From the IMG/VR virus record IMGVR_UViG_3300032291_003663, positions 27,060 through 91,059 of that record: a DNA stretch of 64,000 bases. One strand, 5' to 3'. Below are positions 16,995 through 33,114 of this stretch, piece by piece. Below the pieces are notes generated by a model, which did not search any database, was not told where the DNA came from, and saw only the letters and a list, made by a program, of their open reading frames with translations. The stretch comes from a virus. The translations under genes were made by a program, and so were the position numbers. The first letter of the stretch is position 1, and each line of letters begins with the position of its first letter.

Positions 16995-17316
16995 AAAGAC
17001 AAACGAGGATGCTCAACGTGAATTATTTATTAATACTGTTCCTTTATTAGAACATATTGTGAATAGAGGAGATATGTTATTTGCTGACTATGGGATTAAT
17101 TTACTTAAACATGATGAATCTTTCTTCCAAATTATAGATAGCTTAATATATATGCATTTTGGAAAAGATGCCGGGGAGATAATAATGTTTTACGTTTATG
17201 AAAGAATTAATCCTGATGGAACAATAAATCCACTATATGATACTGAGGATAATGTTGTTCCTTTAGATAAAATTGAAGACTTGTGGGAATTAGTAAAGCA
17301 ATTAATTAAAAAATAA
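16912..17316 (+). CDS. hypothetical protein
   Basis: ORF track. Confidence 0.7.
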   Translation: MNPKDHIEKLQEQINQIIGTQSVLKRRKKTNEDAQRELFINTVPLLEHIVNRGDMLFADYGINLLKHDESFFQIIDSLIYMHFGKDAGEIIMFYVYERINPDGTINPLYDTEDNVVPLDKIEDLWELVKQLIKK

Positions 17317-17966
17317 TGCCTGCTGCTAAACCATTAAGTAAAGAAGATATATTACGAGCAATGCGATTTACAAAATCAAATCGTGCTGCCGCTCGTTATC
17401 TAGGAGTATCCTATCAACATTATAAACCTTGGGCTAAGCAATATAAAGCAGATGATGGCAATATTGACTTACCATCTCTATTTGAATTACATAAAAACCA
17501 ATCAGGTAAAGGTATCCCTAAATTCTTACCCAATAAACGTAAAGACCCAAATGTTAAACTTATAATTGAGACAGGTACAGGATGGGAATCATTTACACCT
17601 GAGAAAATTAAGTCACGATTAATAGCAGAAGCATATTTAAAAGACGAATGTTACCATTGTGGATTTAATGAGCGTAGAGTAACTGATTATAAAACACCAC
17701 TGTTATTACATTTTAAAGATGAAAATAAATGTAATTATTTACTCGATAATTTAGAACTATACTGTTATAATTGTTATTTCTTATACGTTGCTAATCCGTT
17801 AACATTAGATCAAATACGTCATATTGAAGACAATACTGAGGTTAAAGCGGTAGCACATGAGTGGGATTTAACACCTGAGCAAATAGAGAATATGAAATCA
17901 CTAGGCCTATGGGATGAAGATAAAAATGATGAACCTGGATCTGAATTTATAGCTTATCAAAAATAA
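17316..17966 (+). CDS. HTH plus degenerate HNH endonuclease-like protein
   Basis: SNRAAARYLGVSY HTH; CYHCG...LHFKDENKCNYLLDNLELYCYNC. Confidence 0.7.
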   Translation: MPAAKPLSKEDILRAMRFTKSNRAAARYLGVSYQHYKPWAKQYKADDGNIDLPSLFELHKNQSGKGIPKFLPNKRKDPNVKLIIETGTGWESFTPEKIKSRLIAEAYLKDECYHCGFNERRVTDYKTPLLLHFKDENKCNYLLDNLELYCYNCYFLYVANPLTLDQIRHIEDNTEVKAVAHEWDLTPEQIENMKSLGLWDEDKNDEPGSEFIAYQK

Positions 17967-17994
17967 AATATTTATAAACACAAAAATCAAGATT

Positions 17995-18201
17995 ATGGAA
18001 AACAAGTATTACACAGTTAAAGTGGAATTTCAAATGGAAGATGACAAAGGTAAAATTAAAAAACAAACCTTTTCATATCTAGTAGATGCTATGTCGGTAA
18101 CAGAGGCCGAAACTAAAATGACTAAATGGTTAGTTGAAAGAAGTGAACGTGATTTTCAAATTAAAGCAGCTATTGCATCACCAATTGTAGAAGTACTATA
18201 A
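17995..18201 (+). CDS. DUF4494-like protein (Bacteroidota family)
   Basis: GKIKKQTFSYLVDAMSVTEAE matches the YLVDALSFTEAE signature. Confidence 0.7.
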   Translation: MENKYYTVKVEFQMEDDKGKIKKQTFSYLVDAMSVTEAETKMTKWLVERSERDFQIKAAIASPIVEVL

Positions 18202-18210
18202 AAAATAAAA

Positions 18211-18396
18211 ATGGCAATCCAAACTAAAGACGAAGCTCAAAGTAAAGTAGATAAAAAAGTAGATAGATCATTTTATAAAAAGAAAAAATACGTACCGTTA
18301 CGTGAAGAAAGTTGGGCTGATTTAAATCAGCGAGGCGCATCTTTAGCAGATCAACTTGAATGGATAAAATTAAAGAAAAATCAAAGTACTTCATAA
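18211..18396 (+). CDS. hypothetical protein
   Basis: ORF track. Confidence 0.55.
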   Translation: MAIQTKDEAQSKVDKKVDRSFYKKKKYVPLREESWADLNQRGASLADQLEWIKLKKNQSTS

Positions 18397-18432
18397 TTAG
18401 GTAAATAATATTTATAATCAAAAATATAGAAT

Positions 18433-18690
18433 ATGAAACTTTGTGGTAACTGTGGAATTCAATTATCTTGCGGGTGTCAAAGACGAGACGCCTCTGATGG
18501 GAAATCATGTTGTGATCAATGCATAAATGTATATGAAACATCTATTGCACCTCCTCTACCTCCTCCGCCCCCTCCTACTTCTATTCCACTACCAGTAGCA
18601 AAACCAGCTATTGTAGAAGAAATTAAAGTAGAAGAAGTAGTACTTCCTGTTAAAACACTTACTAGAAGAAGTAATTCGGATGAGAAATAG
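18433..18690 (+). CDS. Cys-rich small protein with poly-Pro linker
   Basis: CGNCG..SCGCQ..SCCDQC; ATATTTATA at 18408. Confidence 0.65.
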   Translation: MKLCGNCGIQLSCGCQRRDASDGKSCCDQCINVYETSIAPPLPPPPPPTSIPLPVAKPAIVEEIKVEEVVLPVKTLTRRSNSDEK

Positions 18691-19075
18691 TAAATCAAAT
18701 ATAATTGTATTTGAACCTCTATCTATACGAACCAATAAACCTAAAACGGTTTTTGAAGAGTATAAAGTAAAAATGGCTATAAAAGTAGTAGAGGCTATCT
18801 TACATTGTATTAAATTTGGAAAATCTAAAACAGTATTTGCAGAAATAATAGTTCCGGCATCTAAAGAAATAATTTGTCTAAATATTGAAGAAAGTAACTT
18901 TTTAGATACTTTAAATATAAATTTAGATACTTTAGTAGTAGAAGAAGAATATGAGCTATGTGCTGAATTAGTTAAAGCAAAAGAAAAAATAATAAATGGT
19001 CTTCCAAAGAAAAGTACTCGTCAAAAGAAAAAAGAAGCAGTTGACGATCTTATCGGAACCATAAAAAATCTTTAG
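18680..19075 (+). CDS. hypothetical protein with UVR-like helix (similar to 16605)
   Basis: EEEYELCAELVK. Confidence 0.6.
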   Translation: MRNSKSNIIVFEPLSIRTNKPKTVFEEYKVKMAIKVVEAILHCIKFGKSKTVFAEIIVPASKEIICLNIEESNFLDTLNINLDTLVVEEEYELCAELVKAKEKIINGLPKKSTRQKKKEAVDDLIGTIKNL

Positions 19076-19102
19076 TATATTTGCATTAGTTCTTTAACAT
19101 AT

Positions 19103-19467
19103 GGGGGTAACTGGATTTGATTGCAATGAGAATTGTAGTATCACACGTAGAGGTAAGTGCTAGAAACTCTTTAAAACTGTACAAAACATTAACTGACGAA
19201 ATGTCAACTATGACCTTTGATTCTCTTATGAGTTTCATTGGTGCTGATTACGCTCTAGCAGCCTAATTCCTCCCGTACACATCATGGGACAATTAAATAG
19301 AATGTGAAACCAATGTGGCATAGGAGCCGAATCGAACTCCTATCACCGTCAGCTAACGCGGTGTGAGAATGTTAGATAAGTGTTCATTCTGAATAATGGA
19401 ATAAACGTGTGACATGCTGGTATTATAGTTACTTTGTAAGACGTGGGTTCGAATCCCACTACCTCCA
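19103..19467 (+). ncRNA. ssrA: tmRNA
   Basis: Acceptor GGGGGTA/TACCTCC with G3.U and discriminator A; 5' GGATTTGA; T-arm GTGGG-TTCGAAT-CCCAC; tag ORF 19195-19266 after TAACT, ending YALAA*. Confidence 0.95.
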
Positions 19468-19550
19468 CTAAAATAATCATTATAAACAAATTAAATTTTG
19501 AAACCCTATTTTAGGGTAATACATTTAATTAAATAAAAAACAAAAATAAC

Positions 19551-19703
19551 ATGAAAAAAGCAATTTTCGCTCTAGCATTAGTATCAGTATTATCAAGTTG
19601 TGGTGGTGGATCAAATGAAGTACCAACAATAGATTCAACAAAAGTAGATTCTGTAAAGGTAGATTCAACAGTAGTAACTGATTCTTCTGCAAATGTGAAG
19701 TAA
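19551..19703 (+). CDS. small lipoprotein (50 aa, not in ORF track)
   Basis: MKKAIFALALVSVLSS-CGGGSNEVPTIDSTKVDSVKVDSTVVTDSSANVK; lipobox LSSC; own promoter and terminator. Confidence 0.85.
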   Translation: MKKAIFALALVSVLSSCGGGSNEVPTIDSTKVDSVKVDSTVVTDSSANVK

Positions 19704-19722
19704 TTTAGAATATTAAACTAAT

Positions 19723-19754
19723 AAAAGCTCTGAGATTAAAATCAGGGCTTTTTT
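19723..19754 (+). terminator. intrinsic terminator
   Basis: AAAAGCTCTGA/TCAGGGCTTTT hairpin followed by T-tract. Confidence 0.75.
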
Positions 19755-19778
19755 ACATTTACTTATAACATCAAAAAT

Positions 19779-19804
19779 AAAAAAAGCCGGCTTTTCAGCC
19801 GGCT
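19779..19804 (-). terminator. intrinsic terminator of the holin-like gene
   Basis: Minus strand AGCCGGCT-GAAA-AGCCGGCT-TTTTTT. Confidence 0.8.
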
Positions 19805-19824
19805 ATACAAATAAAAATAATAGA

Positions 19825-19989
19825 CTAAGCTTTCTTTTTAGAAGCTATAGACCATCCAGCACCAACAAGTGTCATAACACCACCAAGGATTTCTTGGAAC
19901 ATTACGTCATCAACAAGTCCTTTTGCAACAATAATACCACCAATGAAGGTTAATGAGTGCCTGATAAGGCCTAAAGTTTGTTCTTTCAT
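19825..19989 (-). CDS. putative holin (Pam3-gp28-like, 54 aa, 2 TM; not in ORF track)
   Basis: MKEQTLGLIRHSLTFIGGIIVAKGLVDDVMFQEILGGVMTLVGAGWSIASKKKA; late motif upstream on the same strand. Confidence 0.75.
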   Translation of the reverse strand: MKEQTLGLIRHSLTFIGGIIVAKGLVDDVMFQEILGGVMTLVGAGWSIASKKKA

Positions 19990-20022
19990 AATAATTGGGT
20001 TTAGTTAATAAATGAGAACACA

Positions 20023-20031
20023 TATAAATAT
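20023..20031 (-). promoter_or_regulatory. putative late promoter ATATTTATA of the holin-like gene
   Basis: Same motif as before the structural genes, oriented with the minus-strand gene. Confidence 0.6.
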
Positions 20032-20087
20032 GAAAAAGTGGGAACCAAATAGTATATTCATATATTTATATTGTTCAAAAGATATAT

Positions 20088-20173
20088 GCCCTTGTGGTGA
20101 AATTGGTAGACACGCAAGACTTAAAATCTTGTTCGCTGTAAAGCGAGTGCGGGTTCAATTCCCGCTGGGGGTA
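20088..20173 (+). tRNA. trnL: tRNA-Leu(TAA)
   Basis: D-arm GTG-AAATTGGTAGA-CAC, anticodon arm CAAGA-CTTAAAA-TCTTG, long variable arm, T-arm GCGGG-TTCAATT-CCCGC; acceptor stem has 4 G.U pairs. Confidence 0.85.
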
Positions 20174-20183
20174 CTTAGTTAAT

Positions 20184-20339
20184 TGTCAAGTGGTGAAAGC
20201 TAGATCAGCAGGCATACACACCCACTCGTCTCGTGGGCGCTGAGTTTGAAATAGATGTTTTGGGTATGGGTTGACCACAAGCCGGCTATTTTGTCCAACA
20301 TTGAATCACAGCGTGGAGGTTCGAATCCTTCCTTGACAG
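20184..20339 (+). ncRNA. tRNA-like RNA 1 (156 nt; non-canonical GTC loop, about 75-nt variable arm)
   Basis: Acceptor TGTCAAG/CTTGACA, stem CCCAC-TCGTCTC-GTGGG, arm closed by CGCTG/CAGCG, T-arm GGAGG-TTCGAAT-CCTTC. Confidence 0.75.
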
Positions 20340-20357
20340 CTTAAATATAGATACAAA

Positions 20358-20477
20358 AGGTTGATTGGGAAGCCTTACACCTTCATTAAAAAGTTGGAAT
20401 GTAAGCGAGGAGGTGTAGGAACCGAAGTAAAGCCAATCGTAAAAGTAGATGTCCACGCACCCATCTTCTACTTTCCT
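20358..20477 (+). ncRNA. unassigned structured RNA A
   Basis: GATTGG/CCAATC, 11-bp CTTACACCTTC/GGAGGTGTAGG, AAAGTAGA/TCTACTTT, AGG/CCT closure. Confidence 0.55.
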
Positions 20478-20487
20478 AAAATTATTG

Positions 20488-20605
20488 ACACGCACGGCAA
20501 CCGAAGTCATACTAGTCAAAGATTAGGCAATGCGAACAACCATGAAGAATACCTCACTGTGCGTAGGTAAGTTTTAAGTTCTTCTGACTGTGGGGAAAGA
20601 CCCAC
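20488..20605 (+). ncRNA. unassigned pseudoknotted RNA B
   Basis: AGTCA+GAAGAA/TTCTTCTGACT junction; TACCT/AGGTA hairpin whose loop CTGTGCGT pairs with ACGCACGG; GTGGG-GAAAGA-CCCAC. Confidence 0.55.
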
Positions 20606-20610
20606 TCTTT

Positions 20611-20718
20611 AGTCAGGTGGCGGAATTGGTAGACGCATTGAGGAATCTAAACTTGGTAACATTTGTTAGATTTAATAGTAATCCTCCTTCCTTACAGGTT
20701 CGAATCCTGTCCTGACTA
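20611..20718 (+). ncRNA. tRNA-like RNA 2 (no anticodon loop)
   Basis: Acceptor AGTCAGG/CCTGACT+A, canonical D-arm GCGGAATTGGTAGACGC, T-arm ACAGG-TTCGAAT-CCTGT; centre is an irregular GAGGA/TCCTC plus AATCTAA/TTAGATT stem. Confidence 0.8.
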
Positions 20719-20721
20719 CAA

Positions 20722-20925
20722 TGGGTAAGAGATACTCACTAGTCTTTAATTCAAGACTTAAACAATGGATTCGCAGAAAGTCTACGGCGCGAGTGGGACT
20801 TCATGGGAATAAAGGAGCGGACACAACTCCTCCCAGTAGTGTTGGATGTTTTTATGAGGGATGCCTCGCAGGTTTTTAAGAAATAGAAAACCGAAACAAC
20901 TACTCATCAGTAATCTCAAGGTGGG
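20722..20925 (+). ncRNA. unassigned multi-hairpin RNA C
   Basis: TGGGTA/TACTCA, AGTCTT/AAGACT, TGGGA+GGAG/CTCC+TCCCA, AGTAGT/ACTACT enclosing GAGG/CCTC and GGTTTT/AAAACC; possible GAGAT/ATCTC loop-loop pair. Confidence 0.55.
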
Positions 20926-20931
20926 GAAAAT

Positions 20932-21048
20932 AGTCAGGTGGGCGTAATGAGGGATGGTCCCGAGTCCTAGAGACCAATCGACACCTGTAAAGGTGCAAAA
21001 TGATGGAGTCGTAAGGTTGCTTATCCGGTTCGAGTCCGGCCCTGACTA
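20932..21048 (+). ncRNA. tRNA-like RNA 3 (no anticodon loop)
   Basis: Same acceptor AGTCAGG/CCTGACT+A as RNA 2; T-arm CCGG-TTCGAGT-CCGG; internal GGGA/TCCC and CACCT-GTAA-AGGTG hairpins. Confidence 0.7.
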
Positions 21049-21084
21049 CTTCTTTAAAAATGATATTTATAACAAATTAGATTT

Positions 21085-22068
21085 ATGAAAACAAAATTAG
21101 TTACTGCTTATTACCCATTACATCAAGGCCCTCCATTTTGGGGTAAACAAAATAGAGAAAGATGGTACAAGCATTCAATTGCTTCAATATGTGAAACTAA
21201 AGTCCCAATAATTTGTTATACAGACGAACTTGGTTATGATGAGCTATTTGCTGTTAAAACTGATAGACAACTAGACAATCTTACAATTAAAATGTACGAT
21301 TTAACAACTAGTCAGTTTCATGATAGAGTTTATAAAGCAAGAATGGAAGGCAATCCTGAAATGTACAATAATGAGCTTCATCCATATTATAGAATGCCTG
21401 TTTCTGTTTATTGGATGAAATGGGGATTTTTAAAAATGGAATATGAAGAAGATACTTACATATATTGGATAGATGGAGGATTATCAACTCAAGGTGTATT
21501 TCCAGGTAGAGCATCATCATACGGAACAGATCCAGGATATTTTAAGAACTATAATGGAGAAGAAGGAGATTTTTATACAACACATGAGTTTAAATTATTC
21601 GTGTTTGATAAAATATTTAACCTCAATTTCATCCCCAATCTAAATAAATTTTCAGAAGGTAAAATAGTTAATATCTGTAGACAAGATTGTACGGATAATG
21701 ATTTTCATTTATTCGAAGAAAAACTAAACTTACCTAAAGGAAATATAATCTACACTAATAAATTCCCAGTAGGTGCCTTATTTGGAGGACATTCTTCCCA
21801 AATAATGAAGTATATAGATGAATTTAATGAGGTAGCAAATAAAGTTCTTGAAGTAGGAGATTATGTTTGTACAGAACAAGAAATAATGGGATATATTCAT
21901 TCAATACATCCCGATTGGTTTACAGATTGGACTTTTCATGACTTTTATCATGAAGATTGGAAATTAGCAAATGGTCCTAGTGTACTTATCCCATATAGAG
22001 AAGCATATCCTAATAATATTTCATTTAGTAAGTTATTTATAGATACTTTGGGAGCTCCTCAAGTTTAA
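21085..22068 (+). CDS. HtrL/YibB (WlaTC)-like glycosyltransferase
   Basis: KLVTAYY, YIYWIDGG, GALFGG, TEQEIM; ATATTTATA at 21063. Confidence 0.65.
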   Translation: MKTKLVTAYYPLHQGPPFWGKQNRERWYKHSIASICETKVPIICYTDELGYDELFAVKTDRQLDNLTIKMYDLTTSQFHDRVYKARMEGNPEMYNNELHPYYRMPVSVYWMKWGFLKMEYEEDTYIYWIDGGLSTQGVFPGRASSYGTDPGYFKNYNGEEGDFYTTHEFKLFVFDKIFNLNFIPNLNKFSEGKIVNICRQDCTDNDFHLFEEKLNLPKGNIIYTNKFPVGALFGGHSSQIMKYIDEFNEVANKVLEVGDYVCTEQEIMGYIHSIHPDWFTDWTFHDFYHEDWKLANGPSVLIPYREAYPNNISFSKLFIDTLGAPQV

Positions 22069-22081
22069 ATACATTTATACA

Positions 22082-22582
22082 ATGTACAACATAAAACAAT
22101 TCTTTAAACGCATTTACAACTTAATACGTTGGGCTCCAATTATATGGAAAGATCAGGATTGGGATGACCATTATATCTTTGAAATACTTAAATTCAAATT
22201 AAAGAATCAAGCTAAATACATTGGAGATAAAGATCGTCATATGTCTGCTAAACGTGATGCTGAAATAATGATGTTATGTGTTCGTTTAATTGAAAAAGTA
22301 CAAAGTGAATATTACGGCTGTGAATATCAAGACTACTACAAATCAGATATTAAATTTATACCTAGTATTTCCCACCCAGGTTGTTTTGAAATGGATGAGG
22401 AACCAATATCAGAACATTATGATGATTATTTTAAAAAATATCCATTAATTTATAGAATGGTTCCTGATTTGCAAGCACCTAAAGAAAAAATTGCATTCCA
22501 AATGGCTAGAATAAACGGAGAACGAGCACATAAATTATTATTTACAATATTAGAACAAAACATTAGAAAATGGTGGGATTAA
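22082..22582 (+). CDS. hypothetical protein
   Basis: ORF track; IWKDQDWD...WWD pattern. Confidence 0.75.
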   Translation: MYNIKQFFKRIYNLIRWAPIIWKDQDWDDHYIFEILKFKLKNQAKYIGDKDRHMSAKRDAEIMMLCVRLIEKVQSEYYGCEYQDYYKSDIKFIPSISHPGCFEMDEEPISEHYDDYFKKYPLIYRMVPDLQAPKEKIAFQMARINGERAHKLLFTILEQNIRKWWD

Positions 22583-22728
22583 TTTTATTTATACTAGCAA
22601 TAGCAGCATCACTTGTTTGGTTATGGGCTGGTGGGATTGATTATATGAAAGAAAATCATCCTGACTATAAAGGAAAAGACTGGTTAAATTGGGATAAGGA
22701 TGAAGAGGATAAAAATCAAATATCATAG
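22570..22728 (+). CDS. small membrane protein (52 aa, not in ORF track)
   Basis: MVGLILFILAIAASLVWLWAGGIDYMKENHPDYKGKDWLNWDKDEEDKNQIS. Confidence 0.65.
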   Translation: MVGLILFILAIAASLVWLWAGGIDYMKENHPDYKGKDWLNWDKDEEDKNQIS

Positions 22729-22756
22729 TTTATAAAAATTATAATAACAAATAACT

Positions 22757-23410
22757 ATGTGGAATATTAAATTAAAACCCCACCAAAAACTATTCTTCAT
22801 CTCAGATACTCATTATAACCATAAAAATATCTGTCGTGGTATAACAAGTTGGACTCATGCTAATAGTCATACTAGAGATTTCCCCACATTGTCTAAAATG
22901 AATGATACTATTATAAACAACATTAACGATATTGTTGGTTTAGACGATATACTAGTTCACTTAGGTGATTGGTCATTTGGTGGGTTTGAATCTGTTAGTG
23001 AATTTAGAAATAGAATAATGTGCCAAAACATTTATTTAATATTAGGTAATCATGATCATCATATTGAAAACAATAAAGAAAATATTCAATCATTGTTTGT
23101 AAAAACATCACATTACGAAATACTAAGAGTAATTGATGAAGATAGTGATGATATAGAATATGACTTTGTATTATCACATTTCCCCATTGTTAGTTGGCAT
23201 GACATGAGTAAAGGTCGCTTCCATATATTTGGCCATGTCCATCTACCAGGCCATAGAAAAATAATGCCGGGTAGAGCAATGGATGTTGGATTAGAAGGAA
23301 ATAATTTAAAACCATATGAAATGAAAGAAGTAGTATCACTACTTGAAACTAGACCAGTTAAAACTAGTACTATACCTTCAGATCACCATGAAAAACAACT
23401 CAACAATTGA
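22757..23410 (+). CDS. calcineurin-like metallophosphoesterase
   Basis: SDTH, LGD, GNHD, SHFP, FGHVH. Confidence 0.9.
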   Translation: MWNIKLKPHQKLFFISDTHYNHKNICRGITSWTHANSHTRDFPTLSKMNDTIINNINDIVGLDDILVHLGDWSFGGFESVSEFRNRIMCQNIYLILGNHDHHIENNKENIQSLFVKTSHYEILRVIDEDSDDIEYDFVLSHFPIVSWHDMSKGRFHIFGHVHLPGHRKIMPGRAMDVGLEGNNLKPYEMKEVVSLLETRPVKTSTIPSDHHEKQLNN

Positions 23411-23415
23411 AATCC

Positions 23416-23625
23416 ATGAAAACCTCAGAAATTAACCCCGGACACTATTTAGAAATTATGGATCGTTTACATATTATAATATGTACTTTAAATGATCATT
23501 GTGTTGAGCATCCTATAACTAAATCGGACTGTCGTATTGAATCGTTATTGATTAAGGCTACAGAAGAGTTATTAGATGCTTATCAAATAGCGGGAGAAAT
23601 ATTTTCTGAAGAAAATGATAAATAA
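23416..23625 (+). CDS. hypothetical protein
   Basis: ORF track (ATG start chosen). Confidence 0.6.
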   Translation: MKTSEINPGHYLEIMDRLHIIICTLNDHCVEHPITKSDCRIESLLIKATEELLDAYQIAGEIFSEENDK

Positions 23626-23642
23626 ATATATTTATCTGTGCT

Positions 23643-23870
23643 ATGATACGATATGCCAAACATAGTAGTAAAAACTACATTGTAATAGATAGCTCATTTG
23701 AGATAAATGAGTTAAAAGTTCCTCTGCATATCCAAATAAATGTTGATGAATTAAGTGAAAATGATAGAAGTATCATATATCGAACAGCTGCAGTAGCTTT
23801 TAATCGTCATATCATTTTCAATAAGAATAAACCCACAAGTTTTAAAAAACCTTGGTGGAAGATTTGGTAA
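23643..23870 (+). CDS. hypothetical protein
   Basis: C-terminal KKPWWKIW; ATATTTAT upstream. Confidence 0.6.
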   Translation: MIRYAKHSSKNYIVIDSSFEINELKVPLHIQINVDELSENDRSIIYRTAAVAFNRHIIFNKNKPTSFKKPWWKIW

Positions 23871-23899
23871 TTCTAAATTAATTAATTAAATTTAAGGTT

Positions 23900-24619
23900 A
23901 TGAAAACAATCGTACTTGGCGATACCCATGGTCGTTCGAATTGGAAATTAGCAATACATCAAGACAATCCTGATAGAGTTATCTTTATAGGTGATTATTT
24001 TGATTCATTCCATATCAATACAACTGACCAAATCAATAATTTCCTTGATATTATTGAATATAAAAAAACATCAGGTAAAGAAGTTATACTACTAATAGGT
24101 AATCACGACCACCATTACTATCCCGAAGTAGGAAATACAGGTACATCAGGATACCAGCATGTAGGAAATTTTCAAATAGTTCCTACCATTGATGCTAATA
24201 GAGAACATTTACAGGTAGCTTATCAAATGAATGATTTTTTGTTTACACACGCCGGTGTAAGTAGTGAATTTATGGATAATGTTTATGGTAACAATGGATG
24301 GAAATTAGAAACATTGGTTGATGACTTAAATGAATTATTTAAGTATAAACCTAAAACATTTGACTTTAATGGTATTGATGGTTATGGAGACGATACTTGG
24401 CAGACTCCATTTTGGATTAGACCTAAATCACTAATGCGTGTGAATAAAAACACATTACGTAAGCAAATTATTCAAGTAGTAGGACATACATCCCAAAAAC
24501 AAATTGATCGTAAAGGTACAGCTACAGGTGGTAAGTATTATTTTATTGATACAATGGATACAAGTGGAGAATACTTGGTTATTCAAGATAACCAACTTAC
24601 CTTCAATTCAGTAAAATAA
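23900..24619 (+). CDS. calcineurin-like metallophosphoesterase
   Basis: GDTHG, GDYFD, GNHD, THAG, VGHT. Confidence 0.9.
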   Translation: MKTIVLGDTHGRSNWKLAIHQDNPDRVIFIGDYFDSFHINTTDQINNFLDIIEYKKTSGKEVILLIGNHDHHYYPEVGNTGTSGYQHVGNFQIVPTIDANREHLQVAYQMNDFLFTHAGVSSEFMDNVYGNNGWKLETLVDDLNELFKYKPKTFDFNGIDGYGDDTWQTPFWIRPKSLMRVNKNTLRKQIIQVVGHTSQKQIDRKGTATGGKYYFIDTMDTSGEYLVIQDNQLTFNSVK

Positions 24620-26571: not shown

Positions 26572-27201
26572 ATGAAATACCTGTTATCCATTCTTATGTT
26601 TATTACTGTTACTGCTTATAGTCAAGATACAGTTACTATTGTACATAAATCGTATAAAACAACTTATAGTAAGTCTAAACATTATCCTGTTAAAGTTGAA
26701 TGGTGGCTAACTAAAGCAATGTTAAGTTGTTCCACCAAAATTAAACGAACTGATAAGTTCGTAGCGGACCCTAAATTACCATTAGATACCGATTTACAAC
26801 CAGATTATAACTCTTCTGGATTCGATCGTGGTCATAATTTTAACGCCGCAGATGGCGCTTGTAATCAAACAACTATGATTGAATCTTTCTATTTCAGCAA
26901 TATGACGGCTCAATACCCAGCATTAAACCGTGGTGATTGGAAGACATTAGAAATAATGACTCGCAAATCAGCACTTGAAGAAGATTCAATCCACATATGG
27001 TGTGGGTCCGTAGGTGAAGCTAAAAAGATAGGCACAACATCAGTTCCTACTCAATGTTGGAAAGTTATTTATATTAAGAAAACAAATAAATGGGAAGCTT
27101 ACTTATTCAACAATGACTTAAATAAAGCTGATGGTATAGAAAATAATCAAGTTGAAGTGAAAATCATTGAGCAAATTACAGGTTTTAAATTTAAAAAATA
27201 A
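26572..27201 (+). CDS. exported DNA/RNA non-specific endonuclease (NucA/EndA type)
   Basis: Signal peptide MKYLLSILMFITVTAYS/Q; FDRGH, SFYFSNM.AQ..LNRGDW, VPTQCWKV. Confidence 0.9.
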   Translation: MKYLLSILMFITVTAYSQDTVTIVHKSYKTTYSKSKHYPVKVEWWLTKAMLSCSTKIKRTDKFVADPKLPLDTDLQPDYNSSGFDRGHNFNAADGACNQTTMIESFYFSNMTAQYPALNRGDWKTLEIMTRKSALEEDSIHIWCGSVGEAKKIGTTSVPTQCWKVIYIKKTNKWEAYLFNNDLNKADGIENNQVEVKIIEQITGFKFKK

Positions 27202-30500: not shown

Positions 30501-30716
30501 ATGAAGACAGCAATGCAAGAATTATGGGAGTGGATTGATGCTAATTATCATGAAGATAGTTTTAATCTAAATGATGCAAAGGAAATATCGCTTCAACGAG
30601 AACAAGATACAGCAATAAAATTCCATAGATGGATGTTAAAAAACGACACAGAACAAAACGCAGAAATATATTTTCATTATAGCGATAATGATATGTGGAA
30701 TGAATTTTTAAAATAA
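30501..30716 (+). CDS. KTAMQEL-family small protein
   Basis: N-terminus similar to 42393 and 43294. Confidence 0.7.
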   Translation: MKTAMQELWEWIDANYHEDSFNLNDAKEISLQREQDTAIKFHRWMLKNDTEQNAEIYFHYSDNDMWNEFLK

Positions 30717-32939: not shown

Positions 32940-33114
32940 CTACAACACATCAGGTGATAATTTAGGATTAAGGGTAGTATTGTTTTTAATATTCACAGCA
33001 TTAAAGCTAACACACTACATAGGTTGGAGTTGGATAGCGATAACGTCTCCGTTGTGGATACCTCTAGTTATGATTATATTTTTAGCGTTGATTCACAATA
33101 TTTTCAAGCAATAG
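32932..33114 (+). CDS. small membrane protein (LKLT..I.WSW..I.SPLW family)
   Basis: LKLTHYIGWSWIAITSPLWIP. Confidence 0.75.
   Translation: MDNYNTSGDNLGLRVVLFLIFTALKLTHYIGWSWIAITSPLWIPLVMIIFLALIHNIFKQ

Follow-up and report, generated by a model that had tools for sequence, protein, structure and literature searches.

A putative tRNA-punctuated array of tRNA look-alikes and non-decoding RNA modules in an uncultivated lake phage

The window analysed here is a stretch of 64,000 nucleotides (nt), positions 27,060 to 91,059, of IMG/VR virus record IMGVR_UViG_3300032291_003663. The record is 91 kb long, ~53% complete and ~30% GC, and comes from an uncultivated lake phage. Positions 20088-21048 of the window form an array of seven RNA genes that follow one another on the + strand within ~960 bases, in the order tRNA-Leu(UAA), the tRNA look-alike tl1, RNA A, RNA B, the look-alike tl2, RNA C and the look-alike tl3 (Table 1). 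A tRNA-shape detector, which requires a TTCRA-type loop in the T arm together with an acceptor stem that is 7/7 complementary within 260 nt, was run over positions 17001-24000 and returned exactly four elements, namely tRNA-Leu, tl1, tl2 and tl3, none of which encodes CCA. The boundaries of A, B and C were placed by family conservation. The order and coordinates given in the original prediction are borne out by the detector, ARAGORN, Rfam and family conservation, and so is its GC-rich block, as the GC content of 20088-21048 is 41-47% against ~30% in the surroundings. The spacers are AT-rich, as had been described, but measure 9, 18, 6, 3, 0 and 0 nt along the array, a range of 0-18 nt in place of the 3-18 nt first given. 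No open reading frame (ORF) longer than 77 amino acids lies inside the block, and tRNA-Leu(UAA) is the sole canonical tRNA of the 91-kb record.

Table 1. RNA genes of the array and its possible promoter region, in window positions
Feature	Position	Strand	Basis
Possible promoter region of array	20051..20075	+	sole intergenic stretch between minus-strand ORF 19825-19989 and tRNA-Leu
tRNA-Leu(UAA)	20088..20174 (detector 20088-20173/4)	+	ARAGORN; Rfam RF00005 53.7 bits
tl1, giant-armed aspartate-like tRNA look-alike	20184..20339	+	detector, covariation, relatives
RNA A	~20358..20478	+	family conservation, covariation
RNA B	~20485..20607	+	family conservation, covariation
tl2, Leu-type tRNA frame with insert	20611..20718	+	detector; Rfam tRNA 39 bits
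RNA C, ~210-nt multi-helix RNA	20719..20931	+	family conservation, covariation
tl3, second frame type	20932..21048	+	detector; nhmmer relatives

Apart from tRNA-Leu, the elements of the array have relatives that public collections of named RNAs do not hold. When positions 18900-21300 were searched with Rfam 15, at gathering cut-offs and at E<=10, only the tmRNA and tRNA models matched, and nothing was found for tl1, tl3, A, B or C. There was no match to GOLLD, ROOL or YrlA. At this threshold, A, B and C are without a known family in Rfam 15, as stated earlier; an identity as RNase P, SRP or 6S RNA was dropped because Rfam finds none. A blastn search against 50,697 GenBank phage records returned pieces of ordinary tRNAs only, and no frame, tl1, A, B or C. 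Relatives of every element are nevertheless present in tens to hundreds of phage contigs. None was found when relatives were sought through the downstream protein (21085-22065).

The first look-alike, tl1, is 156 nt long and combines a U1-A72 acceptor stem and G73 with a hairpin insert in the D loop and a ~75-nt variable arm that ends in the self-complementary tip AGCCGGCU. It has 64 relatives in the fetched loci. In their alignment (A7), 96.8% of the cells pair and compensatory changes are seen in 24 of 32 pairs; the covariation score is 0.569 against 0.188 in shuffled alignments and at most 0.16 with slid partners, and all four stems of the cloverleaf covary. Almost no variation is seen in the anticodon-like loop, UCGUCUC. 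This loop has GUC at its centre and C38, which together with the G10 and G73 that are also present we take to be identity marks of tRNA-Asp for AspRS, but it has C33 and U37 where U33 and a purine at position 37 would be expected, and ordinary decoding by tl1 is for this reason unlikely. A strict tl1 pattern was found in none of 401 Bacteroidota genomes and none of 5 metagenome-assembled genomes (MAGs). A covariance model recovered full-length relatives on megabase contigs of 3 of 61 Bacteroidota genomes, with scores of 77-94 bits and once in tandem, so the strict pattern had been too strict. The presence of tl1 relatives on Bacteroidota chromosomes points to a Bacteroidota host for the phage. 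A tandem pair of tl1-like elements (L444; genome G044, contig 1, ~1,563,392-1,563,894), 219 and 202 nt long and ~80 nt apart, is located on a bacterial contig of megabase size and has no ordinary tRNA closer than 1.5 kb.

The other two look-alikes share the acceptor stem AGUCAGG/CCUGACU with A73, while their middles are unrelated. In tl2, the D arm UGGCGGAAUUGGUAGACGC and the T arm CAGGUUCGAAUCCUG, both exact, enclose a ~57-nt hairpin insert that replaces the anticodon and variable arms. The Rfam tRNA model scores tl2 at 39 bits (cut-off 29) when permissive filters are used, with a 34-nt insertion at the position of the anticodon arm and the arm itself skipped. The acceptor, D and T arms of tl2 align to RF00005; in tl3, the parts of tRNA shape are the acceptor stem and T arm only. 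The D and T arms of tl2 are missing from tl3, which belongs to a sister frame: its T arm is CCGGUUCGAGUCCGG, its 5' module (GUAAUGAGGGAUGGUCCC) is conserved, and its insert measures ~45 nt. Among the loci, nhmmer identifies 24 relatives of tl3, 18 of them distinct, which range from minimal forms of 79-81 nt up to 135 nt, and the GGGC/GCUU pairing covaries by eye (GGGU/ACUU, GGAC/GUCU). The minimal forms, which have no insert and occur in five loci (L211, L106, L131, L322 and L157), correspond to the core of the sister frame and would be handy for structural work.

The frame of tl2 recurs with many different contents. Exact matches to its 3' 23-mer are present in more than 120 IMG/VR contigs, frequently with 2-6 copies per contig and inside tRNA clusters. 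Each copy of the 23-mer is preceded by an acceptor strand that does not change and by a D arm of Leu type, with unrelated middles of ~20 to 130 nt. A census of all fetched loci counted 375 copies at 217 loci, or 322 distinct sequences, with A73 in 293 of the 322; the middles comprise 319 distinct sequences in 248 clusters. The insert of tl2 itself has no relative in the fetched loci. A 21-mer of the frame is present in just 18 of 185,579 species genomes, in every case on MAG contigs, many of them from freshwater Bacteroidota, which marks the frame as a feature of phages rather than as a copied host tRNA. In lake-water DNA metagenomes (runs X1, X5 and X6; all sequencing runs examined were assembled contigs), the 3' end of the frame within 20694-20770 reaches a summed contig depth of up to ~13,000 compared with ~10-100 in its flanks, and hence the frame is extremely common in freshwater viral communities. 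The lake metagenomes also contain other inserts at the same frame joints and, at 20958-21015 of tl3, other short inserts.

One could suppose that the look-alikes are working decoders, as intron-bearing or otherwise unusual tRNAs, with tl1 as a tRNA-Asp and tl2 and tl3 as tRNA-Leu. The score of tl2 above the tRNA cut-off, the Asp-type features of tl1 (GUC centred in a 7-nt loop, G73, G10 and C38) and the A73 and Leu-type D arm of the frame would all agree with this. We regard it as highly improbable, however, since C33 and U37 of tl1 are nearly invariant, tl2 and tl3 have long hairpins where a 7-nt anticodon loop should be, the middles are wholly different among copies of one frame, and the record has no RtcB ligase; we also know of no bacterial splicing system for such inserts. 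ARAGORN calls none of tl1, tl2 and tl3. A tRNA intron in tl2 was considered separately and rejected, as no excision of the insert gives a 7-nt anticodon loop.

The three RNAs between the look-alikes form families of their own, and among their homologs the folds of A, B and C, like that of tl1, covary far above shuffled and slid controls. In RNA B, the hairpin GAAGAA-UACCU...AGGUA-UUCUUC encloses the pseudoknot ACGCAC/GUGCGU and forms a core with it; the apical loop holds the 6-nt palindrome ACUAGU, and positions 20590-20605 make up a 3' hairpin. Its motif is found in 82 contigs, one copy each. In alignment A4, which covers 30 pairs, pairing is seen in 92.2% of the cells (against 78.8%) and covariation scores 0.309 (against 0.110, and 0.04-0.06 for slides), with four covarying helices, P2, P3, P5 and the 3' hairpin. 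The pseudoknot and the helix UACCU/AGGUA are essentially invariant, with one deviation in 44 sequences, and are beyond the reach of covariation. In the window, B is free-standing and has its 3' hairpin. Twelve of 64 distinct members instead carry the B core inside a tRNA frame, seven in the AGUCAGG frame and five in other fully complementary acceptor stems. The frames around B have four different acceptor stems, each fully complementary.

In RNA A, the helix UGAUUGG/CCAAUCG surrounds a variable insert of 0 to ~90 nt and is followed by an 8-bp hairpin, AAAGUAGA/UCUACUUU, with the 17-nt loop UGUCCACGCACCCAUCU. Single copies of the loop motif are present in at least 119 IMG/VR contigs; this 17-nt sequence was the search motif and is fixed by construction. 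Across both helices (alignment A6), 99.9% of the cells are paired, and compensatory change is seen in 9 of 15 pairs, compared with 3.1 in shuffles. Immediately upstream of A is tl1 in 17 of 96 members. The 17-nt loop of A (CCACGCACCC, within 20426-20478) repeats the 5' pseudoknot strand of B (ACACGCACGG, 20488-20498). As both could pair with GUGCGU of B, A might compete for or mimic the pseudoknot of B; all the strands concerned hardly vary.

The 5' motif of RNA C is found as a single copy in each of at least 120 contigs. Alignment A5 has 85.9% of its cells paired (against 78.3%) and a covariation score of 0.236 (against 0.113). The second hairpin forms a pseudoknot through its loop with a segment further downstream, in which 6 of 6 pairs show compensatory change, and the 3' hairpin, which holds an invariant U-G pair, covaries as well. 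The loop of the 3' hairpin, AAUCUC, can kiss the loop of the 5' hairpin, AGAGA; all cells pair, with variation of the G-U kind only. A coding reading of C was rejected, because the conserved ATG opens frames that stop after just 6-60 codons across the family. A hammerhead was also considered from CUGAUGAG on the minus strand of C and was set aside, as the motif is not conserved in the family. With relatives in many contigs and folds that covary, the occurrence of the array is far beyond chance.

Two of the families share a feature that is not explained by folding of a single molecule. In B, a palindrome of at least 6 nt is present at one fixed site of the apical loop in 37 of 44 sequences, and the palindromes are of at least 11 types, including ACUAGU, AGCGCU, GUGCAC, AUCGAU, UCUAGA and ACAUGU. 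In tl1, the tip of the giant arm has a palindrome of at least 6 nt in 34 of 34 sequences and of at least 8 nt in 32 of them, in 14 types, and many of the D-loop inserts are also perfect palindromes. A scan of all alignment columns identified the palindrome sites of B and tl1 as outliers within their alignments, and found none in A or C. Since six-base palindromes cannot fold on themselves, self-complementarity that is kept while the sequence changes points to pairing between two copies, of which the dimerisation loop of HIV-1 is an example. Our results would suggest that tl1 and B form kissing-loop homodimers.

The same observations bear on two other explanations. The look-alikes and RNAs could be debris of a decaying tRNA cluster, in which tl1, tl2 and tl3 would be tRNA pseudogenes interrupted by junk, with A, B and C as remnants of spacers. 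One canonical tRNA is left, ARAGORN rejects the three look-alikes and the tl2 insert is without relatives, as decay would predict. Yet the frames are conserved to the base in hundreds of contigs, tl1, A, B and C have compensatory changes together with near-invariant motifs, and pseudogenes are not expected to keep self-complementary loops through 11-14 changes of sequence; covariation largely refutes this explanation, which we consider extremely improbable. Alternatively, the features could act at the level of DNA, with the frame ends as sites of recombination or cassette exchange, the palindromes as protein-binding or restriction sites, and the RNAs incidental. That unrelated contigs share frame ends without a mismatch over 23-26 nt while the middles are swapped, and that the hexamers of B are classic restriction-type palindromes, would fit such a role. 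We give it little credence, as the folds use G-U pairs, which are A-C mismatches on the opposite strand, covariation is seen in the acceptor stems, both in tl1 and in the alternative frames of B, and a palindrome at a fixed loop position of a covarying fold fits pairing of RNA better. G-U pairs such as that in the 3' hairpin of C would fit an RNA made from the + strand. Recombination at the constant ends, moreover, is compatible with a function of the RNA.

How the modules are arranged elsewhere tells whether they belong to one molecule. The original prediction had offered, as one of two options, that 20358-20925 is one large ornate RNA with an embedded tRNA-like domain, and a single molecule of ~570-870 nt of the GOLLD or ROOL kind would indeed resemble the block in being contiguous, structured, GC-rich and beside a tRNA (10.1101/2024.12.08.627333). 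A and B, moreover, are 6-7 nt apart in 2 of the 5 loci that hold both, and both contain the motif CACGCAC. In other contigs, however, A, B, C, tl1 and the frames occur alone or in shuffled orders, for example frame-C-tl1 or tl1-A-frame-frame-B, the insert of tl2 is unique, no GOLLD or ROOL model of Rfam matches at E<=10, and no long-range covarying pairs between modules were seen. Because the modules occur alone and in other orders, the array is not one large RNA; this option is not supported, and we judge it very improbable.

The other option was that the tRNA-shaped elements are punctuation that releases novel RNAs. RNA C follows this closely: a tRNA-shaped element upstream stops exactly at the first base of C in 54 of 77 members, and another starts 3-6 nt past its last helix in 63 of 81. 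The pattern is partial for A, which is flanked by a tRNA-shaped element upstream in 39 of 96 and downstream in 25 of 94 members, and weak for B (5 of 59 upstream, 11 of 57 downstream). The look-alikes also exceed mere punctuation, being conserved RNAs that carry inserts, with the B core mounted in a frame in the members described above. The punctuation option is supported for C and in part for A.

We lean towards the reading that the array is a tRNA-punctuated operon of independent, non-decoding small RNAs that are released by enzymes, in which tRNA shapes serve as frames and tl1 and B pair with themselves. A single transcript would presumably start upstream of tRNA-Leu, and RNase P of the host would cut on the 5' side of all four tRNA-shaped elements. 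It is established enzymology that, on tRNA shapes without CCA, RNase Z cuts after the discriminator base and RNase P makes the next 5' end. As CCA is not encoded in the array, RNase Z would be expected to cut after each discriminator base. The outcome would be about seven stable RNAs, namely tRNA-Leu, tl1, A (perhaps joined to B), B, tl2, C and tl3, with C released precisely by RNase Z and RNase P together. The tRNA shape would serve as a frame for processing and stabilising unrelated folded inserts, as in tl2 and tl3 and, in other phages, B. A, B and C would be autonomous folded modules whose ends are set by the neighbouring frames, and tl1 and B would each pair with a second copy of itself through the self-complementary loop. 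The released RNAs may act in trans.

Upstream of the block, a tmRNA gene is located at 19103-19470 on the + strand (Rfam RF00023, 81.4 bits, full length; absent from the ARAGORN output). It is followed by a terminator-like hairpin and then by a minus-strand ORF (19825-19989, 54 amino acids) with its own strong terminator hairpin at 19785-19804 on the minus strand. Because this ORF and its terminator lie between them, the tmRNA and the array are separate transcription units, and since the minus-strand gene and two terminator-like hairpins separate the block from the tmRNA, one promoter for the whole block is plausible. The sequence AGTATATTTG at 19074-19083 (+), 19 nt upstream of the 5' end of the tmRNA, holds a TAnnTTTG box of the Bacteroidota -7 type, and the related AGTATATTC sits 28 nt upstream of tRNA-Leu. 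Such boxes are not enriched in the window (92 found, 106 expected). It had been claimed that the array is preceded by a copy of a promoter. The 25-mer at 20051-20075 is unique in the window. Only AGTATATT is common to it and to the TATATTTG box that precedes the tmRNA by 19 nt, and to call the region a copy is weak. A scan for sigma-70 promoters and terminators found no consensus sigma-70 site at 20051..20075, a consensus that may not be that of the host, which is probably a member of the Bacteroidota with other promoters.

Several observations weigh against a punctuated operon of released RNAs. B, as given above, is seldom flanked by tRNA shapes. As A and B are often without an adjacent tRNA shape, either other nucleases or no cleavage at all must set their ends. 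The promoter of the array is only putative, the sigma-70 scan being uninformative and the 25-mer unique. The lone RNA sequencing run yielded short contigs of relatives (of the tmRNA, the 5' half of tRNA-Leu, and C at 20800-20910), which give neither ends nor strand and do not prove transcription. When folded singly, the sequences have unremarkable energies (z between -0.5 and -1.2). Neither the pseudoknot strands of B nor the kissing loops of C vary enough for covariation to test them, and the palindromes of B and tl1 could be sites for proteins on DNA. A partner protein was not found nearby or in the 91-kb record, which contains no CCA-adding enzyme, TROVE/Ro60 protein or RtcB; the neighbouring genes encode a glycosyltransferase and metallophosphoesterases.

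The use of tRNAs for releasing or framing other RNAs is well known from mitochondrial tRNA punctuation, plant tRNA-snoRNA dicistrons, the tRNA-miRNA transcripts of MHV68, engineered tRNA scaffolds and tRNA-gRNA arrays. In these systems, cuts by RNase P and RNase Z set the ends of the neighbours and the body of the tRNA frames a foreign insert, as proposed here, but they are eukaryotic, organellar or man-made. In the literature searched, we found no description of a natural frame of bacterial viruses with hundreds of inserts, or of these RNA families. Candidates of tRNA-like kind are mentioned in a catalogue from 2023 that lists 10,006 candidate viral RNAs, but a design of frame plus insert is not (PMC10690425).

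The closest relatives in layout are found in well-studied phages. In the T5 record (AY543070), RNA1 and RNA2 are annotated as 'tRNA-like stable RNA with unknown functions', and RNAI, RNAIII, RNAIV and RNA2H as stable RNAs; RNA3 is a further stable RNA of the tRNA region. These stable non-tRNA RNAs of 100-170 nt are arranged head to tail with tRNAs, with spacers of 0-4 nt, in a layout like that of the array; tRNA-His, RNAIII, RNAI and RNA1 are contiguous. Of T5 RNA1 and RNA2 (30501-30644 and 32959-33083), RNA1 resembles the frame in its D arm of Leu type, GCCGGAAUUGGUAGACGG, and its middle is long, and the T arm of RNA2, CAGGUUCGAAUCCUG, is identical to that of tl2. The frame of uncultivated phages and the stable RNAs of T5 may share ancestry or constraints. 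T5 differs in that it has no detectable sequence homology to A, B, C, tl1 or the frame, its acceptor stems are different, it lacks the pattern of many copies of one frame, and its RNAs have been detected experimentally whereas those of the array are known here from sequence. In T4, rnaC (species 1, 139 nt) and rnaD (species 2, 119 nt) are located at the end of the tRNA cluster and abut tRNA-Arg, and rnaC ends in a tRNA-type T arm; the two are expressed, and their function is still unassigned (PMC9697503). They have no sequence similarity to the array, are two RNAs only, without a shared frame, and have no palindromic loops noted. The layout of the array is thus of a kind already known and unexplained. 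What is new are the families, the shared frame with swappable inserts, a B that is either free or mounted, and the palindromic loops.

Two further groups of phage RNAs invite comparison. GOLLD and ROOL are, like the array, encoded by phages beside tRNA islands and pseudoknotted, and cryo-EM has shown them to form nanocages and assemblies held by kissing loops, some of which are self-interacting (10.1101/2024.12.08.627333). They are single RNAs of 500-800 nt or more, in contrast to the independent and reshuffled parts of 110-210 nt described here, which have no Rfam match; and their oligomers have been seen, whereas oligomerisation of tl1 and B is suggested from sequence alone. YrlA and Y RNAs are tRNA-mimicking, non-decoding partners of Ro60, and some are phage-encoded (PMC4201824). 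The array has no match to YrlA in Rfam and a different architecture, and the record, as stated, has no gene for TROVE/Ro60.

As for what the RNAs do, our guess is that they could be decoys or sponges that, during infection, bind or occupy proteins of the host that handle tRNA or other RNAs. A more elaborate reading, which we think unlikely, is that the array is a toolkit, in which LeuRS, AspRS, EF-Tu and the CCA enzyme of the host would recognise, and perhaps charge, the frames of Leu and Asp type, homodimers held by kissing loops or larger RNA-only assemblies similar to small ROOL or GOLLD would arise from tl1 and B, and the inserts would be swappable, aptamer-like cargo that sequesters host factors, for example immune nucleases directed against tRNA. 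If this were true, the array would be a natural 'display scaffold' system for RNA, with cassettes traded between phages.

The stable non-tRNA RNAs in the tRNA clusters of T4 and T5 have remained without a function for about fifty years, and the array reveals a modular phenomenon on a much larger scale: hundreds of inserts are found in a single constant tRNA frame, and single-copy A, B and C are common to many uncultivated freshwater phages. It also supplies short, defined RNAs, supported by covariation, for experiment. The predicted homodimers of tl1 and B would tie the array to ROOL and GOLLD, the self-assembling RNAs of tRNA islands, and the array as a whole may be regarded as a natural counterpart to engineered tRNA scaffolds and tRNA-guide arrays.

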